NCBI GenBank assembly: GCA_041660505.1
Contig: JBAZWG010000001.1
Location: 477,776-541,775 of the forward strand
DNA: 64,000 nt
Source of the DNA: Minisyncoccota bacterium
GTDB taxonomy: Bacteria; Patescibacteriota; Minisyncoccia; Phycocordibacterales; JACRKE01
Direction: 5' to 3'
The notes under the pieces are model-generated. The model made no database searches and had not been told where the DNA came from. It saw only the letters and a program-made list of their open reading frames with translations. Both the position numbers and the translations under genes were made by a program. Positions 9,773 to 31,580 of the stretch are shown piece after piece; within the stretch, counting starts at the first letter, position 1, and the number at the start of each line of letters is the position of its first letter.

Positions 9773-9847
9773 TGGTGCTCCCGGCAGGAATCGAACCTGC
9801 ATCTGATCCTTCGCAGGGATCTGTCCGGTCCATTGAACGACGGGAGC
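9773..9847 (-). tRNA. tRNA-Arg with apparent anticodon GCG and an encoded CCA
   Basis: Cloverleaf: acceptor GCTCCCG/CGGGAGC, D-stem GTTC/GGAC, anticodon stem GATCC/GGATC with loop CTGCGAA, T-arm GCAGG-TTCGATT-CCTGC, discriminator A, then CCA. Confidence 0.75.
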
Positions 9848-10618: not shown

Positions 10619-10641
10619 AGGTTCGATTCCTGCCAGGAGCA
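10619..10641 (+). repeat. Inverted partial copy (22/23 nt) of the 3' end (T-arm plus acceptor) of tRNA-Arg at 9776-9798
   Basis: aggttcgattcctgccaggagca compared with the tRNA's AGGTTCGATTCCTGCCGGGAGCA. There is no 5' half or cloverleaf upstream, so it is a fragment. Confidence 0.7.
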
Positions 10642-11124
10642 TTAAAAGCCCAGTCGCCGCGAGAGTAACTCCGCGAAGGGGATTTGATGTTCTTCTTCGG
10701 GTAAATGCTTGAGAATAAAGGCGCGGGTGTTGTCCGGATTAAGATATTCTAGGGGAATAATAATGTACGGCGAGAGCATCTTCTTGGATTTGAAGATGAT
10801 GCTCGCCGGCGTTTGCAGATAAATCCAGAAAGATTCGAGCGATTTAAATGAGTGAAATTCGTTGTTAAGTTTAAGCCCTTGGTTTGTAAGCTCGCAGTGT
10901 ACCGTTTGAGGCGGGCGAGCACCGAAGAGCATAACTGTAAAAGCTGCTACTATGATTAAGACAGCGAAAAGGATGTTGCCGAAGAAGAGCGAGGCGATAG
11001 CGATACCCGCGGCGATTATGCCCACGACCCAATACCACTCGCTAGTTTTATGCACGAACTCGTACTCTTGCGTCTGCCAGGAGATTTTTTCTGCTATCCG
11101 CTCGATGTTTTCTTGTTCCGGCAT
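10642..11124 (-). CDS. Hypothetical membrane protein (two TM helices, PH-like/DUF304-like topology)
   Basis: Hydrophobic segments WYWVVGIIAAGIAIASLFFGNILFAVLIIVAAFTVMLF. Confidence 0.4.
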   Translation of the reverse strand: MPEQENIERIAEKISWQTQEYEFVHKTSEWYWVVGIIAAGIAIASLFFGNILFAVLIIVAAFTVMLFGARPPQTVHCELTNQGLKLNNEFHSFKSLESFWIYLQTPASIIFKSKKMLSPYIIIPLEYLNPDNTRAFILKHLPEEEHQIPFAELLSRRLGF

Positions 11125-19212: not shown

Positions 19213-19260
19213 CGGAGGGTAGAGGACTCGAACCTCTAAGGGCTTTCACCCGCTAGTTTT
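19213..19260 (-). pseudogene. 3' half (variable arm plus T-arm plus acceptor 3' strand) of a class-II (Ser-like) tRNA, with no cognate 5' half adjacent
   Basis: Reverse complement reads CTAGCGGGTGAAAGCCC-TTAGAGG-TTCGAGT-CCTCT-ACCCTCC-G. Its acceptor strand is complementary to the GGAGGGA fragment at 19736-19742. Confidence 0.5.
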
Positions 19261-19290
19261 TCCGCCCTTCGGCGGACCCGCTGGGGCGGG
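19261..19290. repeat. 30-bp perfect direct repeat, copy 1 (double hairpin TCCGCCCTTCGGCGGACCCGCTGGGGCGGG)
   Basis: Identical to 19692-19721; it folds into two short hairpins (CCGCC-CTTC-GGCGG and CCCGC-TGGG-GCGGG). Confidence 0.85.
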
Positions 19291-19312
19291 CAAGACTGCT
19301 TTCGAGACAAGG

Positions 19313-19400
19313 CGGAGGGAGCGAGATTCGAACTCGCGAGACCCTTTCGGGTCTACCGCATTTCAAGTGCGGCGCACTAGACCAACTATGCGATCCCTCC
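19313..19400 (-). tRNA. tRNA-Ser (anticodon TGA), class II with a long variable arm
   Basis: Acceptor GGAGGGA/TCCCTCC, D-arm GCAT-AGTTGGTCTA-GTGC, anticodon arm CCGCA-CTTGAAA-TGCGG, variable arm GACCCGAAAGGGTC, T-arm GCGAG-TTCGAAT-CTCGC, discriminator G. Confidence 0.85.
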
Positions 19401-19650
19401 GCCTTGTTTCGAATAATTTATCAAGATACTCTCGCCCCGTCCCCGACTTCAACCAGTTCTCCCTTTTTCTCGCCTCGGTAAAATCTTCACAGGATTCGGT
19501 ATGAATCAATTTCCAAGGTCGTCCTGCTTTTGTTGAACTGGTTTTTCCGGCATTGTGCGCTCGTAACCTTATATCAGGAATATTCTCGTGGCTTGACCCA
19601 ACGTAACGCTTCCCAGTTTTCTCGCTTAGAAGAACATAGACACAGGACAT
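19363..19650 (-). CDS. GIY-YIG nuclease family protein (COG2827/UPF0213-type small endonuclease)
   Basis: CVYVLLSEKTGKRYVGSSHENIPDIRLRAHNAGK matches the GIY-YIG ... RL.EHN signature. The 3' end overlaps the 5' part of tRNA-Ser by about 38 nt. Confidence 0.75.
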   Translation of the reverse strand: MSCVYVLLSEKTGKRYVGSSHENIPDIRLRAHNAGKTSSTKAGRPWKLIHTESCEDFTEARKRENWLKSGTGREYLDKLFETRRRDRIVGLVRRT

Positions 19651-19691
19651 TTTGTGAGTATATCACAGGAATGGTTTTTTGCCTTTGCACT

Positions 19692-19721
19692 TCCGCCCTT
19701 CGGCGGACCCGCTGGGGCGGG
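19692..19721. repeat. 30-bp perfect direct repeat, copy 2; followed by a tRNA-Ser-like 5' fragment (reverse complement GGGAGGGATCGCATAGCGGTCT at 19722-19743)
   Basis: Identical to 19261-19290. The adjacent fragment matches the first 15 nt of the intact tRNA-Ser. Confidence 0.85.
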
Positions 19722-19851
19722 AGACCGCTATGCGATCCCTCCCAGACCGCCTATATTAGCGAAAAGTGGACAATTAGTCTAGACACTCGCTAATGGCAGT
19801 GTTACGATTATATTATTAGCAAAAGATTATTAGTAATTAATTTAAAAAAGT

Positions 19852-22879: not shown

Positions 22880-23437
22880 ATGAAGATCGATTCGTACAAA
22901 ATAATATATTTAAAAATGGCGCTGTTCGTTGTCGTCCCGCTCCTGCTTTATGGGATGGTCTTTCGAACTTTGCTTAATGCGCGCGGAGAGGCGGAGAAGA
23001 TACAGACTGCGAACGCATTCGAAGAGGATACCCACTCATTGCGCGTCGCTCTCAAAGCGGCAATGGATAATTCGCTTGAAGATAGGAGTAAAATAGAAAC
23101 TCATTTTGTACGCAAGGATGATATCGTCAACTTCATCAATAATTTGGAAAAGTTAGGAAATGATAACGGTGTCGTGGCGAACGTGAGCTCGCTTGGAGAA
23201 TTATGGCAAGATCAGAATAGCGGGTCGCTGGCCATTTCTCTCCATGTCGCGGGAACTTTTACTGACGTGTACAATTATCTCCTTCTGCTTGAAGAGACAC
23301 CGCAGAAATTGACGCTTGACGACATCCAGCTGATAGCTGGGGACAGCGGAGCGCCGACGACAATAAAAGCGTTAGGCCCGCATACGAGTATCTGGACAGC
23401 CGACATTCGCGCTACGGTCGTACACTATATTAAATAG
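22880..23437 (+). CDS. pilO: Type IV pilus assembly protein PilO-like
   Basis: Follows pilM and pilN; N-terminal TM helix and a coiled region. Confidence 0.5.
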   Translation: MKIDSYKIIYLKMALFVVVPLLLYGMVFRTLLNARGEAEKIQTANAFEEDTHSLRVALKAAMDNSLEDRSKIETHFVRKDDIVNFINNLEKLGNDNGVVANVSSLGELWQDQNSGSLAISLHVAGTFTDVYNYLLLLEETPQKLTLDDIQLIAGDSGAPTTIKALGPHTSIWTADIRATVVHYIK

Positions 23438-23439
23438 AC

Positions 23440-23763
23440 ATGTTTAAAAATCCATTTACTAGACAAGTAAGAGCAACACATGGCCGGCACGAGAGGCCGT
23501 GGGGTGGTATCTACGCGCAGCGTATTTGGAAGTGGATGCTCCTGGCGACGCTTATAATCTTCTGCCTCTTTGAATGGGCGCATTTGCAGATATATCGTTA
23601 TTATACGCGCCCGGTCTCCATCTCTGTTAAGGCGATAACTAAGGAGGTTGTGAATCTGGACCGCGCCGGTCTCGATATGGCCGTATCTAGCATAAAAGAT
23701 AAAGAAGTGATGTTCAACCAGTACCTCAAACAAAAGGTCCAGATAACCGACCCGGCGCAGTAG
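23440..23763 (+). CDS. Hypothetical membrane protein in the pil cluster (possible PilP-like)
   Basis: One TM helix (WMLLATLIIFCLFEW); supported by position only. Confidence 0.35.
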   Translation: MFKNPFTRQVRATHGRHERPWGGIYAQRIWKWMLLATLIIFCLFEWAHLQIYRYYTRPVSISVKAITKEVVNLDRAGLDMAVSSIKDKEVMFNQYLKQKVQITDPAQ

Positions 23764-23802
23764 TGTACTTATTTCGAAAGTTATTGTATTGTAATGCGGT
23801 GT

Positions 23803-23874
23803 GCCCCCGTAGCTCAATGGATAGAGCAGCGCTCTTCTAAGGCGTTGATGTGAGTTCGATTCTTACCGGGGGCG
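23803..23874 (+). tRNA. tRNA-Arg (anticodon TCT)
   Basis: Acceptor GCCCCCG/CGGGGGC, D-arm GCTC-AATGGATA-GAGC, anticodon arm GCGCT-CTTCTAA-GGCGT, T-loop TTCGATT. Confidence 0.85.
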
Positions 23875-28700: not shown

Positions 28701-28716
28701 AAAAGTGGATAAATAA

Positions 28717-29430
28717 TTGGTAGACGCTATACACTTGAGGTATACTAGAGGCATGGGAATGCGAGGACCATTACCAAAGAGGAGAGTGAAAATTAAGTGG
28801 TCGGCAAAATTTGCCTATGCTATTGGATTATTGGTAACCGACGGTTGTCTCTATAACGATTATCGGCACATGAGTCTGACTTCTAAAGATATTGAACAGG
28901 CTCGAAATTTCAAAAAGTGTCTCGGCTTGAAAGTTAAAATTGGATTGAAGGGGAGCGGAGCGTCCAAAGAAAAAAAATACTATCATGTACAGTTCGGGGA
29001 TGTCGAATTTTTTGAATTTTTACAGTCTGTTGGACTCACGCCCGCAAAGTCAAAAACGATCGGTGCCGTCAAAGTCCCAGACGAATATTTTTTTGACTAT
29101 GTTCGGGGGTGTTTTGATGGAGATGGATGTTTTTATTCATACTGGGATCCTCGCTGGCGATCGAGCCATATGTTCTATGTTGAATTTGTTTCTGCGAGCA
29201 AAGTACATATCAATTGGTTTCGAGAAGAGTTACGAATGAGGGCTGGAATTGTAGGTCATCTGACAGATGATGGGAAACACTCTACAACTCAGCTCAAATA
29301 CGCAAAGAAAGAGGCGCTGGTAATTATCGACAAAATGTACTATAATCCTCGTGTTATTTGCCTCACCAGAAAAAAGCTCAAAATCAAAAAAGCTTTGAAA
29401 ATTGAGCGAAGACAGCAAAAGTTATATTGA
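28717..29430 (+). CDS. LAGLIDADG-family homing endonuclease (double-motif)
   Basis: Two LAGLIDADG motifs: FAYAIGLLVTDGCL and FDYVRGCFDGDGCF. The gene ends 5 nt before tRNA-Leu. Confidence 0.8.
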   Translation: MVDAIHLRYTRGMGMRGPLPKRRVKIKWSAKFAYAIGLLVTDGCLYNDYRHMSLTSKDIEQARNFKKCLGLKVKIGLKGSGASKEKKYYHVQFGDVEFFEFLQSVGLTPAKSKTIGAVKVPDEYFFDYVRGCFDGDGCFYSYWDPRWRSSHMFYVEFVSASKVHINWFREELRMRAGIVGHLTDDGKHSTTQLKYAKKEALVIIDKMYYNPRVICLTRKKLKIKKALKIERRQQKLY

Positions 29431-29435
29431 GTTAT

Positions 29436-29522
29436 GCCCGGGTGGAGGAACTGGCAGACTCGCAACCTTGAGGTGGTTGTGCCCGCAAGGGCGTGCAGGT
29501 TCAAGTCCTGTCCCGGGTACCA
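29436..29522 (+). tRNA. tRNA-Leu (anticodon GAG), class II, with an encoded CCA
   Basis: Acceptor GCCCGGG/CCCGGGT, anticodon arm CAACC-TTGAGGT-GGTTG, long variable arm GCCCGCAAGGGC, T-arm GCAGG-TTCAAGT-CCTGT, discriminator A plus CCA. Confidence 0.8.
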
Positions 29523-29543
29523 GAATAATTTCTAATAAAATCT

Positions 29544-29840
29544 ATGACTATAGAATTTTTGCGTTCGTACCGTGTTGGACCTTTTGCGATTTTTGATTTC
29601 GCTCTTTCTTACGTTGCTGTATATTTCCTAGCACCATATCTATCTAAACTTTTTGCTCTCGTTGGCATAAGTATAAACAGAGAACAGTGGCTGTGGCTCA
29701 CTTTGCCGATCGCGCTTATTACACATCTGGTCTTTAGAATAGACACGCCATTTACCAGAATGATGCTAGACCCCTCTGGCGGGTATATTGCGAAATTTGT
29801 TATTATATTTATGCTGATCATGGTATACGTAAGACGGTAA
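29544..29840 (+). CDS. Hypothetical small membrane protein
   Basis: Three predicted TM segments. Confidence 0.4.
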   Translation: MTIEFLRSYRVGPFAIFDFALSYVAVYFLAPYLSKLFALVGISINREQWLWLTLPIALITHLVFRIDTPFTRMMLDPSGGYIAKFVIIFMLIMVYVRR

Positions 29841-29861
29841 GATTGCGACGGAGCAAAGTTC

Positions 29862-30452
29862 ATGCCTAACAAATTCTACACCGGCAAGGGAGACAAGGGC
29901 GATACAGGGTTCTTCGGTACTGCCGAGCGCCACCCCAAATCATCAATGCGCGTTGAGTGTCTCGGCGCGGTGGATGAACTTGGCTCGTGGGTCGGCCTCT
30001 GTCGTGCGAAGTTGGTCACCGAGGAGAGACCTCCCTCTGGAGGACTCTCCTCGGTGACAAAATCAAAAATATTAGAAGAAGTTCAGCAAAATCTGTTTAT
30101 CATCCAGGGCGAGTTTGGCGGAGCCGACGTGCATTTGAACGAGAAACATCTAGCGAAGCTCGAAGAAGATATTGCTGACATTTCTAAACGCTTGCCGGAA
30201 ATCACCAGTTTTGTTTTACCCGGCGCATCCGAGCTTGGCGCGATACTTGATATAACTCGCACGATAGCGAGGCGCGTCGAAAGGCGAGTGGTTGCATATG
30301 CCAAAGATACGCAACTTATGGGAGCAGTGCAGGGGAGGGCGCGCGAATTTACTCTGGCCTACTTGAATCGTCTATCGAGTCTCTTATACGTCCTCGCTCG
30401 ACACGAGGCCGCAAAAAGAGGAACGCAAGAAAAAACTCCGACCTATGAGTAG
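29862..30452 (+). CDS. ATP:cob(I)alamin adenosyltransferase, PduO type
   Basis: FYTGKGDKGDTGFFGTAERHPKSSMRVECLGAVDELGSWVG matches the PduO/MMAB N-terminus. It carries the in-frame family B element (VTEERPPSGGLSSV). Confidence 0.8.
   Translation: MPNKFYTGKGDKGDTGFFGTAERHPKSSMRVECLGAVDELGSWVGLCRAKLVTEERPPSGGLSSVTKSKILEEVQQNLFIIQGEFGGADVHLNEKHLAKLEEDIADISKRLPEITSFVLPGASELGAILDITRTIARRVERRVVAYAKDTQLMGAVQGRAREFTLAYLNRLSSLLYVLARHEAAKRGTQEKTPTYE
30017..30056. repeat. Family B 40-bp palindromic element, copy 2, in-frame in the adenosyltransferase gene
   Basis: caccgaggagagacctccctctggaggactctcctcggtg, with terminal inverted octamers. Confidence 0.8.
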
Positions 30453-30529
30453 GGTGGTGTTAGCACTATTCTTTGTGGATAAAGTCGAACACGGGTATAT
30501 ACCGACGCTGTAAAAACCGTTATAATTAA

Positions 30530-31045
30530 GTGATGGTATGGATGCTATGCAGTCATTGTAAAAAGGAGTTTCAAACAAAACCTTCTTGGATTCGTTATGG
30601 CAGGAAGTATTGTTCAGAACCATGCCAGCGCTTAGGTATGCGCAAGGGTAAAAACGTCAAATGCTCATGGTGTGAAAAAGTAGTATACAAATCACTGAAG
30701 GAACTGCACGGTACGAAAAGCGGCAAATTATTTTGCAGTAAAACCTGCAGTCTAGCTTGGATTGCGTCAGAACACCAAGAAGAAAATCATCCCAATTGGA
30801 AAAATGGTGAAAAATCATATCGTCACATTCTCGAGCGTCACACCAAAAAGAAGATTTGTATTCTCTGCCAGACAGAAAACCCTGATGTCATGGCCGTCCA
30901 CCATGTTGATCAAAATCGAAAGAACAACAAGTTAAGCAATCTCCAATGGCTCTGCCATAACTGCCATCATTTGGTGCATTGTTACCCGAGAGAAAAAATA
31001 AGATTTACAAAATTACTTACGCCCACAAATGCCACGCCACTGTAA
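30530..31045 (+). CDS. HNH endonuclease with N-terminal zinc-ribbon modules
   Basis: HNH motif VHHVDQNRKNNKLSNLQWLCHNCHHLVH plus several CxxC pairs. It is a tandem paralog of the next gene. Confidence 0.75.
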   Translation: MMVWMLCSHCKKEFQTKPSWIRYGRKYCSEPCQRLGMRKGKNVKCSWCEKVVYKSLKELHGTKSGKLFCSKTCSLAWIASEHQEENHPNWKNGEKSYRHILERHTKKKICILCQTENPDVMAVHHVDQNRKNNKLSNLQWLCHNCHHLVHCYPREKIRFTKLLTPTNATPL

Positions 31046-31520
31046 AATATGCAATACATTATTTTATGCTAAACCCGGACACGTTAAGCGTGGCTGGGGC
31101 ATATACTGTTCGCGAACGTGTCATTACTCGGACACAATTGAAAAGGTGAAGAAAGAATGCGAGACGTGCAAAAAACCGGTTTTCGTTGTGCGCTCCAAAA
31201 TTATTCGCTCAAAAAGCGGAAAGTTTTTCTGTAACAAATCCTGCCAGACAAAATGGCGTAATCGGCAGTATGTCGGCAACAAACATAGTAATTGGAAGGA
31301 CGGGCTTAATTCGTACCAGTCAATTCTTGATCGCAATAAAGTTCCCCGGATATGCTTGTTATGTAAAATCACTGATATTCGCATTCTGGTAACTCATCAT
31401 GTTGATGAAAATCACCGAAACAATGAGCTTTCAAATTTGGCTCGTTTGTGTCATAATTGCCATCACTTGGTTCATAACAGGCCTAAGTATAAGAGCAAGC
31501 TTATGGTGCCTCTGGTGTAA
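31029..31520 (+). CDS. HNH endonuclease (tandem paralog) whose 3' end overlaps tRNA-His
   Basis: THHVDENHRNNELSNLARLCHNCHHLVH. The stop at 31518-31520 lies inside the tRNA-His 5' acceptor region. Confidence 0.75.
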   Translation: MPRHCKICNTLFYAKPGHVKRGWGIYCSRTCHYSDTIEKVKKECETCKKPVFVVRSKIIRSKSGKFFCNKSCQTKWRNRQYVGNKHSNWKDGLNSYQSILDRNKVPRICLLCKITDIRILVTHHVDENHRNNELSNLARLCHNCHHLVHNRPKYKSKLMVPLV

Positions 31521-31580
31521 CGGTTAACACAGACCCCTGTGGAGGGTCAAATTCGAGTTCGATTCTCGGGAGGCACCCCA
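31505..31580 (+). tRNA. tRNA-His (anticodon GTG) with G-1 and an encoded CCA
   Basis: Extra 5' G, acceptor GTGCCTC/GAGGCAC, D-arm GTGT-AACGGTTA-ACAC, anticodon arm GACCC-CTGTGGA-GGGTC, discriminator C plus CCA. Confidence 0.85.

Follow-up and report, generated by a model that had tools for sequence, protein, structure and literature searches.

Free-standing homing endonucleases linked to tRNA genes are already known from phages and from cyanobacteria. SegB of phage T4, a GIY-YIG enzyme encoded in the phage tRNA cluster, has a recognition site that contains the T-psi-C motif and promotes the transmission of both its own gene and the adjacent tRNA region (PMC2330249). Similarly, the HNH homing endonuclease gene all8564 holds a conserved position upstream of mobile tRNA L-arrays, in cyanobacteria as well as in other bacteria (PMC8421152). 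LAGLIDADG endonucleases encoded within introns occur in rRNA genes of the Patescibacteria, or candidate phyla radiation (PMC11270868, PMC8172020); a paper on patescibacterial rRNA insertions makes no mention of tRNA. Furthermore, group I introns in the anticodon loops of bacterial tRNA genes have been reviewed (PMC3984707). The present analysis concerns a stretch of 64,000 nucleotides (nt) of a Minisyncoccota bacterium (assembly GCA_041660505.1, contig JBAZWG010000001.1, positions 477,776 – 541,775; hereafter the window), in which nuclease-type genes abut or overlap the 5' ends of single tRNA genes. This pairing pattern was found in this patescibacterial bacterium and in hundreds of its relatives; in many species, every nuclease lineage keeps to a single tRNA isoacceptor gene.

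Seven tRNA genes were called in the window by ARAGORN and by Rfam (gathering threshold); both methods agree with each other and with the positions given in the first-pass annotation. Four of the seven, namely tRNA-Leu(GAG), tRNA-His(GTG), tRNA-Ser(TGA), and tRNA-Arg(GCG), have a co-oriented open reading frame (ORF) at their 5' end, which terminates between 15 nt upstream of the tRNA 5' end and 38 nt inside the tRNA gene, and no such 5' neighbour accompanies tRNA-Lys, tRNA-Arg(TCT), or tRNA-Val. All five ORFs involved, tRNA-His having two HNH genes, precede their cognate tRNA gene on its 5' side and share its strand. On a simple gene map, same-strand abutment of a tRNA 5' end occurs for exactly four of the 76 window ORFs, all of them among the five nuclease-type genes; the hypergeometric chance of that overlap is 5/C(76,4), or about 4e-6. 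The first-pass annotation, made from the sequence alone, had reported that four of the seven tRNA genes are physically coupled to ORFs, that a LAGLIDADG gene ends 5 nt before tRNA-Leu(GAG), that tandem HNH paralogs stand directly 5' of tRNA-His, that a GIY-YIG gene overlaps tRNA-Ser, and that three nuclease families take part. ARAGORN, Rfam, the ORF coordinates (Table 1), and the domain assignments bear out all five statements. Two further statements stood in part. The stop codon of the second HNH gene does lie inside tRNA-His, but its TAA (31518 – 31520) occupies tRNA positions 13 – 15, in the D arm and not in the acceptor region; and an ORF does adjoin tRNA-Arg(GCG), but its description as LAGLIDADG-like found no support, only a helix-turn-helix (HTH) domain being recognized in it.

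The LAGLIDADG protein exceeds the cut-off of Pfam LAGLIDADG_3 (25.1 versus 22.5 bits), and profile searches against PDB retrieved I-CreI (3e-6) and, over both domains, 2dch (1.6e-6), in addition to a match to PHROGs phrog_4645 (1e-26). It has the single-chain, two-domain form, with two LAGLIDADG helices that carry a terminal acidic residue (AYAIGLLVTDG and FDYVRGCFDGDG); D30/G31 and D122-G125 are invariant in eight homologues. Its true start is likely ATG 28753, because homologues begin with MGxRGPKPK. The small GIY-YIG protein matches Pfam PF01541 (3.7e-13; 50 bits versus a cut-off of 22.6) and retains the invariant residues Y16, G18, R28, H32, and E64. Both HNH proteins combine two Cys-rich, zinc-ribbon-like motifs with an HNH/Cys4 core, of which H123, H124, D126, N136, H145, and H149 as well as C109, C112, C141, and C144 are invariant in 28 HNH sequences. 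The distal copy scores 21.4 bits with Pfam HNH_3, below the cut-off of 24.8, and the proximal copy has no match; profile searches retrieved the HNH domain of a group II intron maturase (2e-4), IscB, and McrA, and PHROGs phrog_1271 was matched at 1e-15 to 1e-17. None of the five proteins reached a curated NCBIfam cut-off.

Relatives of each protein were gathered and their surroundings scanned for tRNA genes with ARAGORN. The HNH set consisted of 80 relatives, one per species, from species-representative genomes across the Nomura-, Kaiser-, Zambryski-, Vogel-, Uhr-, Lipton-, and Staskawiczbacteria; the set for the tRNA-Arg-linked ORF consisted of 80 metagenomic relatives. A same-strand tRNA-His(GTG) gene lay within -16 to +29 nt of the HNH gene in 78 of the 80 relatives, one exception being located at a contig end. 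The overlap measured 15 – 16 nt in 39 loci, 37 of which have exactly 15 nt, and places the stop codon at tRNA positions 13 – 15; therefore, these HNH proteins end in x-M-x-x-[IMLV]-[VA]. Similarly, tRNA-Arg(GCG) was found directly 3', on the same strand, in 72 of the 80 relatives of the tRNA-Arg-linked ORF; the remaining eight comprised two at tRNA-Arg(CCG), two with an ARAGORN call on the opposite strand, and four at contig ends, where the contig stops 11 – 77 nt past the ORF or inside it. For tRNA-Leu(GAG), the sample consisted of the 39 HNH-anchored sources (38 fetched loci and the window) that happen to contain this gene; all ten LAGLIDADG relatives found there abut it at 0 – 11 nt. Five contigs with GIY-YIG homologues were fetched, in four of which the gene stands 5' of a tRNA-Ser gene: in two it lies 12 – 13 nt from tRNA-Ser(TGA), in one 60 nt from tRNA-Ser(CGA), and in one in a 22-nt overlap with tRNA-Ser(CGA), the fifth contig being too short.

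More divergent branches of the same families abut other tRNA genes, namely tRNA-Ser(TGA), tRNA-Pro(TGG), and tRNA-Arg(TCT) for HNH, and tRNA-Arg(CCG), tRNA-Ser(GCT), tRNA-Ser(ACT), tRNA-Gly(TCC), and tRNA-Ile(TAT) for the tRNA-Arg-linked ORF. Relatives on viral contigs sit within phage tRNA clusters, one HNH relative ending exactly at tRNA-Thr. Because other branches and phage relatives abut different tRNA genes, the association is a property of the families and not one ancestral synteny. It does not extend to all LAGLIDADG relatives, as no tRNA gene was found within flanks of about 3 kb of 22 distant relatives on viral contigs (22 – 31% identity in the main match); the link thus characterizes the subfamily found in Patescibacteria and not the fold. 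In a census over 937 kb, which was enriched through the choice of loci and in which the non-bait cases all pointed in the same direction, a tRNA 5' end was abutted by 174 of 212 family members (82%) versus 43 of 1088 other genes (4%), and the median gap to the tRNA gene was 0 nt for family members versus 31 nt for other upstream genes (p = 2e-12). The non-abutting family members were mostly the upstream copy of the HNH doublet. Such pairs can cluster, since loci L165 – L167 carry two of them in series, a 198-amino acid (aa) ORF, possibly of the tRNA-Arg-linked family, with tRNA-Arg(GCG) at a 4-nt gap, followed by a GIY-YIG gene with tRNA-Ser(TGA) at a 13-nt gap.

These data bear directly on the possibility of a plainly inherited gene order, under which the genes would be ancestral neighbours, tightly spaced through genome compaction, with neither targeting nor a functional link. 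Upstream synteny (RluA, rplS, tRNA-Leu, and the cobalamin adenosyltransferase gene) is indeed partly kept around the HNH/tRNA-His pair, and genes that encode no nuclease, among them rplS and a NUDIX gene, hold fixed places upstream of tRNA genes as well. However, four unrelated families behave in the same way, their divergent branches and phage relatives abut different tRNA genes, the linkage persists where both flanks change, and family members differ from other genes in the census by the proportions given above; the presence/absence polymorphism and the tRNA remnants described below point in the same direction. Inherited gene order is already contradicted by this multi-family, multi-tRNA pattern and is very unlikely as an explanation.

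At the tRNA-Leu(GAG) locus, the gene order rplS (ribosomal protein L19) – tRNA-Leu(GAG) is conserved, and the LAGLIDADG gene is present or absent at this one syntenic site. The spacing between rplS and the tRNA gene amounts to 42 – 330 nt without the LAGLIDADG gene versus 813 – 875 nt with it, and ten of the 39 loci are occupied. Carriers are scattered on the L19 tree, five of the six carriers on that tree pairing with a gene-less sister. In addition, decay was seen, since locus L012 has only a 70-aa LAGLIDADG remnant and the copy of L043 is truncated N-terminally. Recent mobility is evident at this site, and equally at tRNA-Ser(TGA), the 5' side of which is a hot spot for unrelated small genes. 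About ten of 34 tRNA-Ser(TGA) sites, in loci chosen through the tRNA-Arg-linked ORF, are occupied upstream, depending on the genome by an HNH gene (L083, L086, and L150), a GIY-YIG gene, a LAGLIDADG gene (L133/L134), or a ParE-like gene (L094 and L138). Occupancy elsewhere was about two of 20 for tRNA-Arg(TCT) and zero of 19 for tRNA-Val(TAC). The ParE/RelE-type toxin gene 5' of tRNA-Ser(TGA) has no obvious antitoxin gene adjacent to it.

The most informative result of the analysis consists of pseudo-tRNA remnants on the far side of the nuclease genes; the diverged ones among them were found by profile searches and missed by an exact-match search for tRNA fragments. A 5' half of tRNA-Leu(GAG), spanning the D arm through the anticodon loop, adjoins the LAGLIDADG gene upstream, in the window 11 nt before ATG 28753. 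A block AATTGGTAGACGC-N5-7-yTTGAG(GT) precedes the gene in seven of the eight loci with an intact LAGLIDADG gene, and these blocks stop on the 3' side of the anticodon loop, 11 – 39 nt before the conserved N-terminal GP(K/L)PK motif. The remnants also carry a sequence much better conserved between loci than the LAGLIDADG protein itself, which is 48 – 58% identical. The exact block TTGGTAGACGC was present in five of seven remnants, in none of the ten functional tRNA-Leu genes adjacent to a LAGLIDADG gene, and in eight of the 29 tRNA-Leu genes without it. For the HNH doublet, a clean 5' half of tRNA-His (G-1 to position 37 – 40) lies 29 – 55 nt upstream of the first HNH gene in eight loci, where none of its stems agrees with that of the functional tRNA-His nearby; in L075, L046, and L053, a hairpin in which the anticodon sequence takes part and then a T-rich tract come after the remnant. 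The window itself has a probable decayed counterpart, located 3' of the cobalamin adenosyltransferase gene and 5' of the distal HNH gene, of which the block yTGTGGATAArGTC..CACGGnTATAT is conserved in L171, whose HNH proteins are 79% identical. For tRNA-Ser, the first 15 positions are repeated upstream of the GIY-YIG gene (19728 – 19742 being 100% identical to 19386 – 19400), with a TAATAT box 10 nt upstream of the fragment; a 31-nt hairpin-containing repeat follows both this copy and the real tRNA gene. The upstream copy is an internally deleted tRNA-Ser that has retained its TAATAT box. In L170, 36 nt of the 5' end of tRNA-Ser are repeated exactly upstream of the GIY-YIG gene, and in L162 – L164 the downstream hairpin repeat flanks the unit. 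The repeat search found no terminal repeats for the LAGLIDADG and HNH units of the window. It is proposed that the common end point of the remnants marks a break in the resident gene, in the anticodon loop for tRNA-Leu and tRNA-His and at positions 22 – 36 for tRNA-Ser; the unit apparently includes the pseudo-tRNA 5' half.

Table 1. Positions of the tRNA genes, linked ORFs, tRNA remnants, and further features of the window
Feature	Position	Strand	Basis and remarks
LAGLIDADG endonuclease gene, double motif	28717..29430	+	Pfam, PDB, PHROGs; stop codon 29428-29430
tRNA-Leu(GAG), complete	29436..29522	+	ARAGORN, Rfam; 5-nt gap to LAGLIDADG stop codon
Pseudo-tRNA-Leu(GAG) 5' half, from D arm to anticodon loop, GTGGATAAATAATTGGTAGACGCTATACACTTGAGGT	28705..28741	+	nhmmer, tRNA-Leu profile, model positions 14-39, E 0.003
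Promoter-like site TTGGTA-18-TATACT on pseudo-tRNA-Leu	28717..28746	+	consensus scan; putative function
Distal HNH gene (HNH1)	30530..31045	+	HNH motif, two Cys4 zinc-ribbon-like motifs; monophyletic 'distal' clade
Proximal HNH gene (HNH2)	31029..31520	+	last five codons and stop codon cover tRNA-His positions -1 to 15
tRNA-His(GTG), encoded G-1 and CCA	31505..31580 (31506-31580 without G-1)	+	ARAGORN, Rfam, sequence
Probable decayed pseudo-tRNA-His, including TAGCACTATTCTTTGTGGA, anticodon GTG	30453..30500	+	weak nhmmer match 30461-30479, E 0.038 in a 438-nt search
-10-like box TTATAAT	30520..30526	+	sequence; 6 nt before ATG 30533 of distal HNH gene; putative promoter
GIY-YIG nuclease gene, small	19363..19650	-	Pfam; final 12 codons run into tRNA-Ser
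tRNA-Ser(TGA)	19311..19400	-	ARAGORN, Rfam; 38-nt overlap with GIY-YIG ORF
Pseudo-tRNA-Ser 5' fragment	19722..19742	-	repeat search; tRNA positions 1-15 exact, then CGGTCT
31-nt hairpin-containing repeat (X), upstream copy	19691..19721	-	100% identical to 19260-19290, after the real tRNA-Ser
Extended -10 box TGaTATACT	19665-19657		6 nt before GIY-YIG ATG
tRNA-Arg(GCG)-linked ORF, 239 aa	9863..10582	-	N-terminal HTH, conserved alpha/beta domain
tRNA-Arg(GCG)	9773..9847	-	ARAGORN, Rfam; begins 15 nt past ORF end
Inverted copy of tRNA-Arg(GCG) 3' end, 22/23 nt	10619..10642	+	T arm and acceptor strand; 33 nt upstream of ORF
ORF, 322 aa	27732-28700	+	no Pfam domain; between rplS and pseudo-tRNA-Leu/LAGLIDADG unit
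ORF, 107 aa	23440-23763	+	stops 38 nt before tRNA-Arg(TCT)
ORF, 130 aa, antisense	23425-23817	-	overlaps tRNA-Arg(TCT); no homologues or domains
Protein, 2039 aa	13090-19209	+	repeat-rich, signal-peptide-type, PKD-like domain

Putative expression signals were found within these units. The promoter-like site in front of the LAGLIDADG gene, whose -35 element TTGGTA is part of the conserved pseudo-tRNA-Leu remnant, ends 6 nt before ATG 28753, and the LAGLIDADG mRNA would therefore be leaderless. The boxes preceding the GIY-YIG and distal HNH genes in the window are spaced likewise (Table 1), and a TTTACA-17-TAnAAT promoter 6 nt before the HNH start codon is clear in L075, L052, and L053. In gene-less tRNA-Leu(GAG) loci, a -10 box of the TATAGT/TATAAT type lies about 8 – 15 nt before the mature 5' end, implying very short tRNA leaders; a similar box occurs in the last codons of several nuclease ORFs. 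A tRNA-His promoter embedded in the CHNCH codons of the HNH gene (TGTCATAAT) was considered as well and dropped, as codon usage there is not clearly biased (CAT 41, CAC 31; TGT 40, TGC 34; only AAT being mildly enriched).

The explanation favoured here, to which a probability of roughly two in three is assigned, is that the pairs represent free-standing, homing endonuclease-type cassettes, each lineage being specialized on one tRNA gene and travelling with a copy of it, and DNA cleavage being predicted. A unit, clearest for LAGLIDADG, HNH, and GIY-YIG, would consist of a pseudo-tRNA 5' part, its own promoter with a leaderless start, the nuclease ORF, and a complete tRNA gene. The nuclease would recognize the nuclease-free allele of the cognate tRNA gene through the anticodon-loop/D-arm region, which is isoacceptor-specific and conserved across species, and would cut in or near the anticodon loop; the presumed 'sensitive' tRNA-Leu allele would be GGCGAAATTGGTAGACGCACTACCTTGAGGTGGTAGCG. 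Repair of the break from the cassette-bearing copy would then introduce the nuclease gene and the adjoining tRNA 5' part, or an entire tRNA gene, into the recipient, orphaning the resident 5' half upstream, with a complete tRNA gene being reconstituted or replaced downstream. As a complete tRNA always remains downstream, the essential gene would never be lost. The ORF abutting or overlapping the tRNA gene may be co-transcribed with it, the tRNA being released through normal 5' processing. The first-pass annotation had proposed tRNA genes as preferred landing sites of selfish nucleases; the core of this idea is supported, sharpened to pairs of one nuclease lineage and one isoacceptor gene, and the proposal as a whole is supported in part. 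Its alternative suggestion, a nuclease role in the maintenance of tRNA loci, found no direct support.

Two other ways of invading a tRNA gene were considered and set aside. A self-splicing tRNA intron does not fit, since Rfam (gathering threshold) found only the seven tRNA genes in the window and the downstream tRNA gene is complete. An integrase-type tRNA island does not fit either, given that no integrase gene was found among the neighbours and that the repeats are of the tRNA 5' part or of a downstream hairpin and not a direct repeat of the 3' end.

Several observations weigh against the cassette explanation. First, cleavage and homing are themselves predictions, and immunity of the linked tRNA must be assumed, because the complete downstream tRNA gene still contains the presumed target. 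In the sister pair L046 (with gene) and L035 (without gene), the tRNA-Leu genes differ at one acceptor-stem base pair only. The D-loop motif ATTGGTAGAC occurs in one of ten functional tRNA-Leu genes with a LAGLIDADG gene versus 14 of 29 without (Fisher p = 0.057, uncorrected for phylogeny), and the depletion of ATTGGTAGAC / TTGGTAGACGC in gene-linked tRNA-Leu is suggestive only as a signal of immunity. Second, the tRNA-His and tRNA-Arg(GCG) loci were all chosen via the nuclease, their counts of 78 and 72 representing adjacency and not an occupancy rate. Third, clear remnants of tRNA-His were present in only eight of 78 HNH loci, and the profile search found no same-strand tRNA remnant for the tRNA-Arg-linked ORF; hhalign and Foldseek found no recognizable nuclease fold in the latter either. 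Fourth, the HNH doublet is an old tandem duplication that has been co-inherited and has stayed mostly intact. Lastly, the HNH genes and the tRNA-Arg-linked ORF evolve like host genes between close relatives. Indeed, pN/pS of the HNH genes is 0.11 – 0.19 between the window and close relatives, indicating strong purifying selection, and dN/dS of the tRNA-Arg-linked ORF is 0.04 versus 0.07 for the neighbouring cobalamin adenosyltransferase gene, with equal divergence. Such purifying selection is needed by an active element and is equally expected of a domesticated gene.

The history of the HNH doublet can be followed more closely. The two ORFs overlap mutually by 17 nt. The proximal protein ends in M-V-P-L-V-stop (ATG GTG CCT CTG GTG TAA), its final codons mapping to G-1, the acceptor strand, positions 8 – 9, and the D stem of tRNA-His, and the G of the terminal ATG is G-1 of the tRNA. 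All distal copies group in a single clade, and its branching order matches that of their proximal partners (distances of distal versus proximal copies, r = 0.41). A stack of successive invasions with the newest copy at the tRNA gene was rejected, because the copies overlap or abut, no tRNA remnant lies between them, and the distal clade mirrors the proximal one. The two proteins possibly act as a heterodimer; distal copies are truncated or split in L018, L019, L032, L041, and L070. Recent mobility is established neither for HNH/tRNA-His nor for the tRNA-Arg-linked ORF, and is not claimed for HNH because the doublet is old, co-inherited, and under strong purifying selection. An ancestral and syntenic arrangement across distant relatives, which the first-pass annotation had named as refuting its proposal, was accordingly found in part for this pair. 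HNH distances correlate with those of tRNA-His (r = 0.25, p < 0.002), and Mantel tests with host markers, based on identity distances of short proteins, gave r = -0.01 for RluA and r = 0.14 (not significant) for L19, versus r = 0.51 for the control comparison of RluA with L19. Distances between tRNA-His genes likewise do not follow RluA and L19. Both results, the co-variation of HNH with tRNA-His and the independence of the two from the host markers, are in keeping with a unit that includes the tRNA.

Domestication offers another reading of these features. The HNH pair and the tRNA-Arg-linked HTH protein, and possibly the others, would then be host factors serving the adjacent tRNA gene or the cell, possible roles being tRNA transcription or processing, the protection of the locus or its repair, or an attack on foreign alleles of the same tRNA gene brought in by phages. 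The near-total adjacency in 78 and 72 loci, the purifying selection with a divergence close to that of a neighbouring host gene, and the long co-inheritance of mostly intact distal and proximal HNH genes are all consistent with such roles, and the phage tRNA clusters with relatives indicate that phage tRNA genes exist as potential targets. Moreover, very small genomes tend to lose non-essential DNA, which counts in favour of host functions. Host factors are nonetheless unlikely to account for the whole, since LAGLIDADG genes occupy about a quarter of the tRNA-Leu(GAG) loci and are missing from sister genomes, unrelated families interchange at tRNA-Ser(TGA), remnants and decayed copies point to insertion and loss, and HNH distances do not track host markers. 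For the HNH and tRNA-Arg-linked families, a host function is still a serious, if less likely, alternative. The matches found by PADLOC, all weak and to homing endonuclease and ZorE HNH models, also speak against host factors.

The tRNA-Arg(GCG)-linked ORF stands somewhat apart, as only its tRNA linkage is established. Pfam searches with 28 members and with divergent members recognized its N-terminal HTH only, which matches transposase-type families (HTH_Tnp_1, HTH_23, and the Sleeping Beauty HTH); the C-terminal alpha/beta domain is strongly conserved (LYWAEGxK, FANTDP, and HxxH). Profile searches against PDB returned HTH matches only, hhalign against a LAGLIDADG alignment gave a probability of 0.3%, and Foldseek with a structure model (predicted local distance difference test, pLDDT, of 86) gave no match at E <= 0.001 in PDB and BFVD and no LAGLIDADG protein in the top 50 of PDB. 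A LAGLIDADG fold is thus unsupported by hhalign, PDB profiles, Foldseek, and Pfam, the resemblance being at the level of the motifs LYWAEGxK and FANTDP only; the C-terminal domain matched no other known fold either, and a nuclease function of this protein is put forward as a hypothesis. Some of these ORFs translate through the entire tRNA gene, giving C-termini such as APVAQGIE. In one sub-clade (L085 – L091, L093, L095, L100, L102, L103, L110, and L136), the ORF, of 257 – 270 aa, is free of stop codons through the whole tRNA-Arg; if the transcript were cut at the tRNA 5' end, such read-through mRNAs would be stop-less. The CGN-reading tRNA-Arg has the anticodon GCG in the window and in dozens of related contigs (L082 – L161). 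In most bacteria, it has an ACG anticodon that is read as inosine, and the GCG anticodon may reflect an absent A34 deaminase in this clade.

For this ORF in particular, elements of the integrase or transposase type that use tRNA genes as attachment sites come to mind. Its HTH is of the transposase type, and the inverted copy of the tRNA-Arg 3' end upstream of it brackets the ORF and its tRNA gene with inverted repeats; this arrangement has a similar counterpart only in L129, the inverted repeat thus being seen in two of 76 loci. Elements of this kind are nevertheless very unlikely to underlie the pairs. No integrase or DDE domain was found, nor an integrase among the neighbours, no terminal repeats are present for the other families, and the units consist of a single gene (two HNH genes at tRNA-His) on the 5' side of the tRNA gene. 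Integrase islands, in contrast, lie on the 3' side of tRNA genes and are accompanied by a duplication of the 3' end.

Other genes of the window were seen near these units. The 322-aa ORF upstream of the pseudo-tRNA-Leu forms a singleton cluster without counterpart in 80 HNH-anchored loci; it may represent cargo, or else an insertion into this hot spot that is specific to the lineage. The antisense 130-aa ORF across tRNA-Arg(TCT) is probably spurious, the 107-aa ORF on the sense strand being the likelier gene; the latter looks like a non-nuclease neighbour, and its C-terminus resembles those of ORFs 5' of tRNA-Arg(TCT) in other loci (...DPSL/DPAQ). The 2039-aa protein, with a counterpart of 1834 aa in the close relative L172, is probably a surface or adhesion protein of an episymbiont-type bacterium.

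A bolder version of the cassette explanation, possible but doubtful at present, regards the cassettes as portable gene-drive units that need nothing but a tRNA gene and can enter any genome regardless of flanking synteny. The pseudo-tRNA 5' half would then act both as the left homology arm and as a promoter or operator, while the right homology arm would be provided by the 3' half of the complete tRNA gene, and the carried tRNA would be a cleavage-resistant allele; the cassette would replace the resident allele and leave the resident 5' half behind. If so, core tRNA genes of Patescibacteria would be horizontally exchanged alleles, each linked to its own nuclease, and at least one new nuclease-type domain, that of the tRNA-Arg-linked ORF, would be involved.

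If the cassette explanation is true, core single-copy tRNA genes of a very large phylum would be systematic targets and vehicles of selfish nucleases, and an essential RNA gene would be invaded without an intron, through duplication of part of the gene. The pairs would also provide direct evidence of ongoing DNA exchange and gene conversion among uncultivated, ultra-small bacteria, whose tRNA alleles would not follow the species tree. For annotation, it would follow that in these genomes an ORF that terminates within a tRNA gene or continues across it is to be taken as real, as with the MVPIV C-terminus. Furthermore, these families would be a natural source of long-site nucleases whose targets are conserved and can be predicted (the D-arm/anticodon region of tRNA genes), including four uncharacterized subfamilies below NCBIfam cut-offs and one domain of unknown fold.

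Integrative elements that use tRNA genes as insertion sites bring along a substitute for the 3' end they displace. They share with the patescibacterial units the use of tRNA genes as conserved landing sites and a tRNA part in the element that restores the gene; the latter units, however, are a mirror image, as the 5' part is duplicated, an integrase is lacking, and the cargo is one nuclease gene or, at tRNA-His, two in tandem. The point of resemblance to group I introns of tRNA genes is the anticodon loop, where the remnants stop and where tRNA introns are classically inserted, but the patescibacterial units have no ribozyme and no split tRNA to be spliced. With the intron-encoded LAGLIDADG enzymes of patescibacterial rRNA genes, they have in common the phylum, the enzyme family, and a conserved RNA gene as target; these enzymes, in contrast, reside inside self-splicing introns, whereas in the window Rfam found no intron and the RNA gene is kept intact by partial duplication. 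The cyanobacterial all8564 is similar in that an HNH gene of cellular genomes immediately precedes tRNA genes, whose spread it has been proposed to assist. It differs in that a single HNH gene stands beside an array of up to 43 accessory tRNA genes, whereas the patescibacterial genes of four families are paired one-to-one with single-copy core tRNA genes and may overlap them. SegB, finally, is likewise encoded by a free-standing gene among tRNA genes, and its recognition site includes a conserved motif of tRNA genes; it acts in a phage, on a whole tRNA cluster and through the generic T-psi-C motif, whereas the patescibacterial pairs, whose activity is predicted, involve one isoacceptor per lineage, abutment or overlap at the tRNA 5' end, and a pseudo-tRNA 5' half. 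No report of one-to-one nuclease/tRNA pairs in Patescibacteria was found in the literature searched, which was covered in part. What sets the patescibacterial pairs apart from these systems is the one-to-one pairing of nuclease lineages with core isoacceptor genes in four unrelated families, the exact 5' abutment or overlap, and the apparent inclusion of the pseudo-tRNA 5' half in the unit; the strictness and breadth of the pairing, together with the remnants, would probably surprise a specialist.

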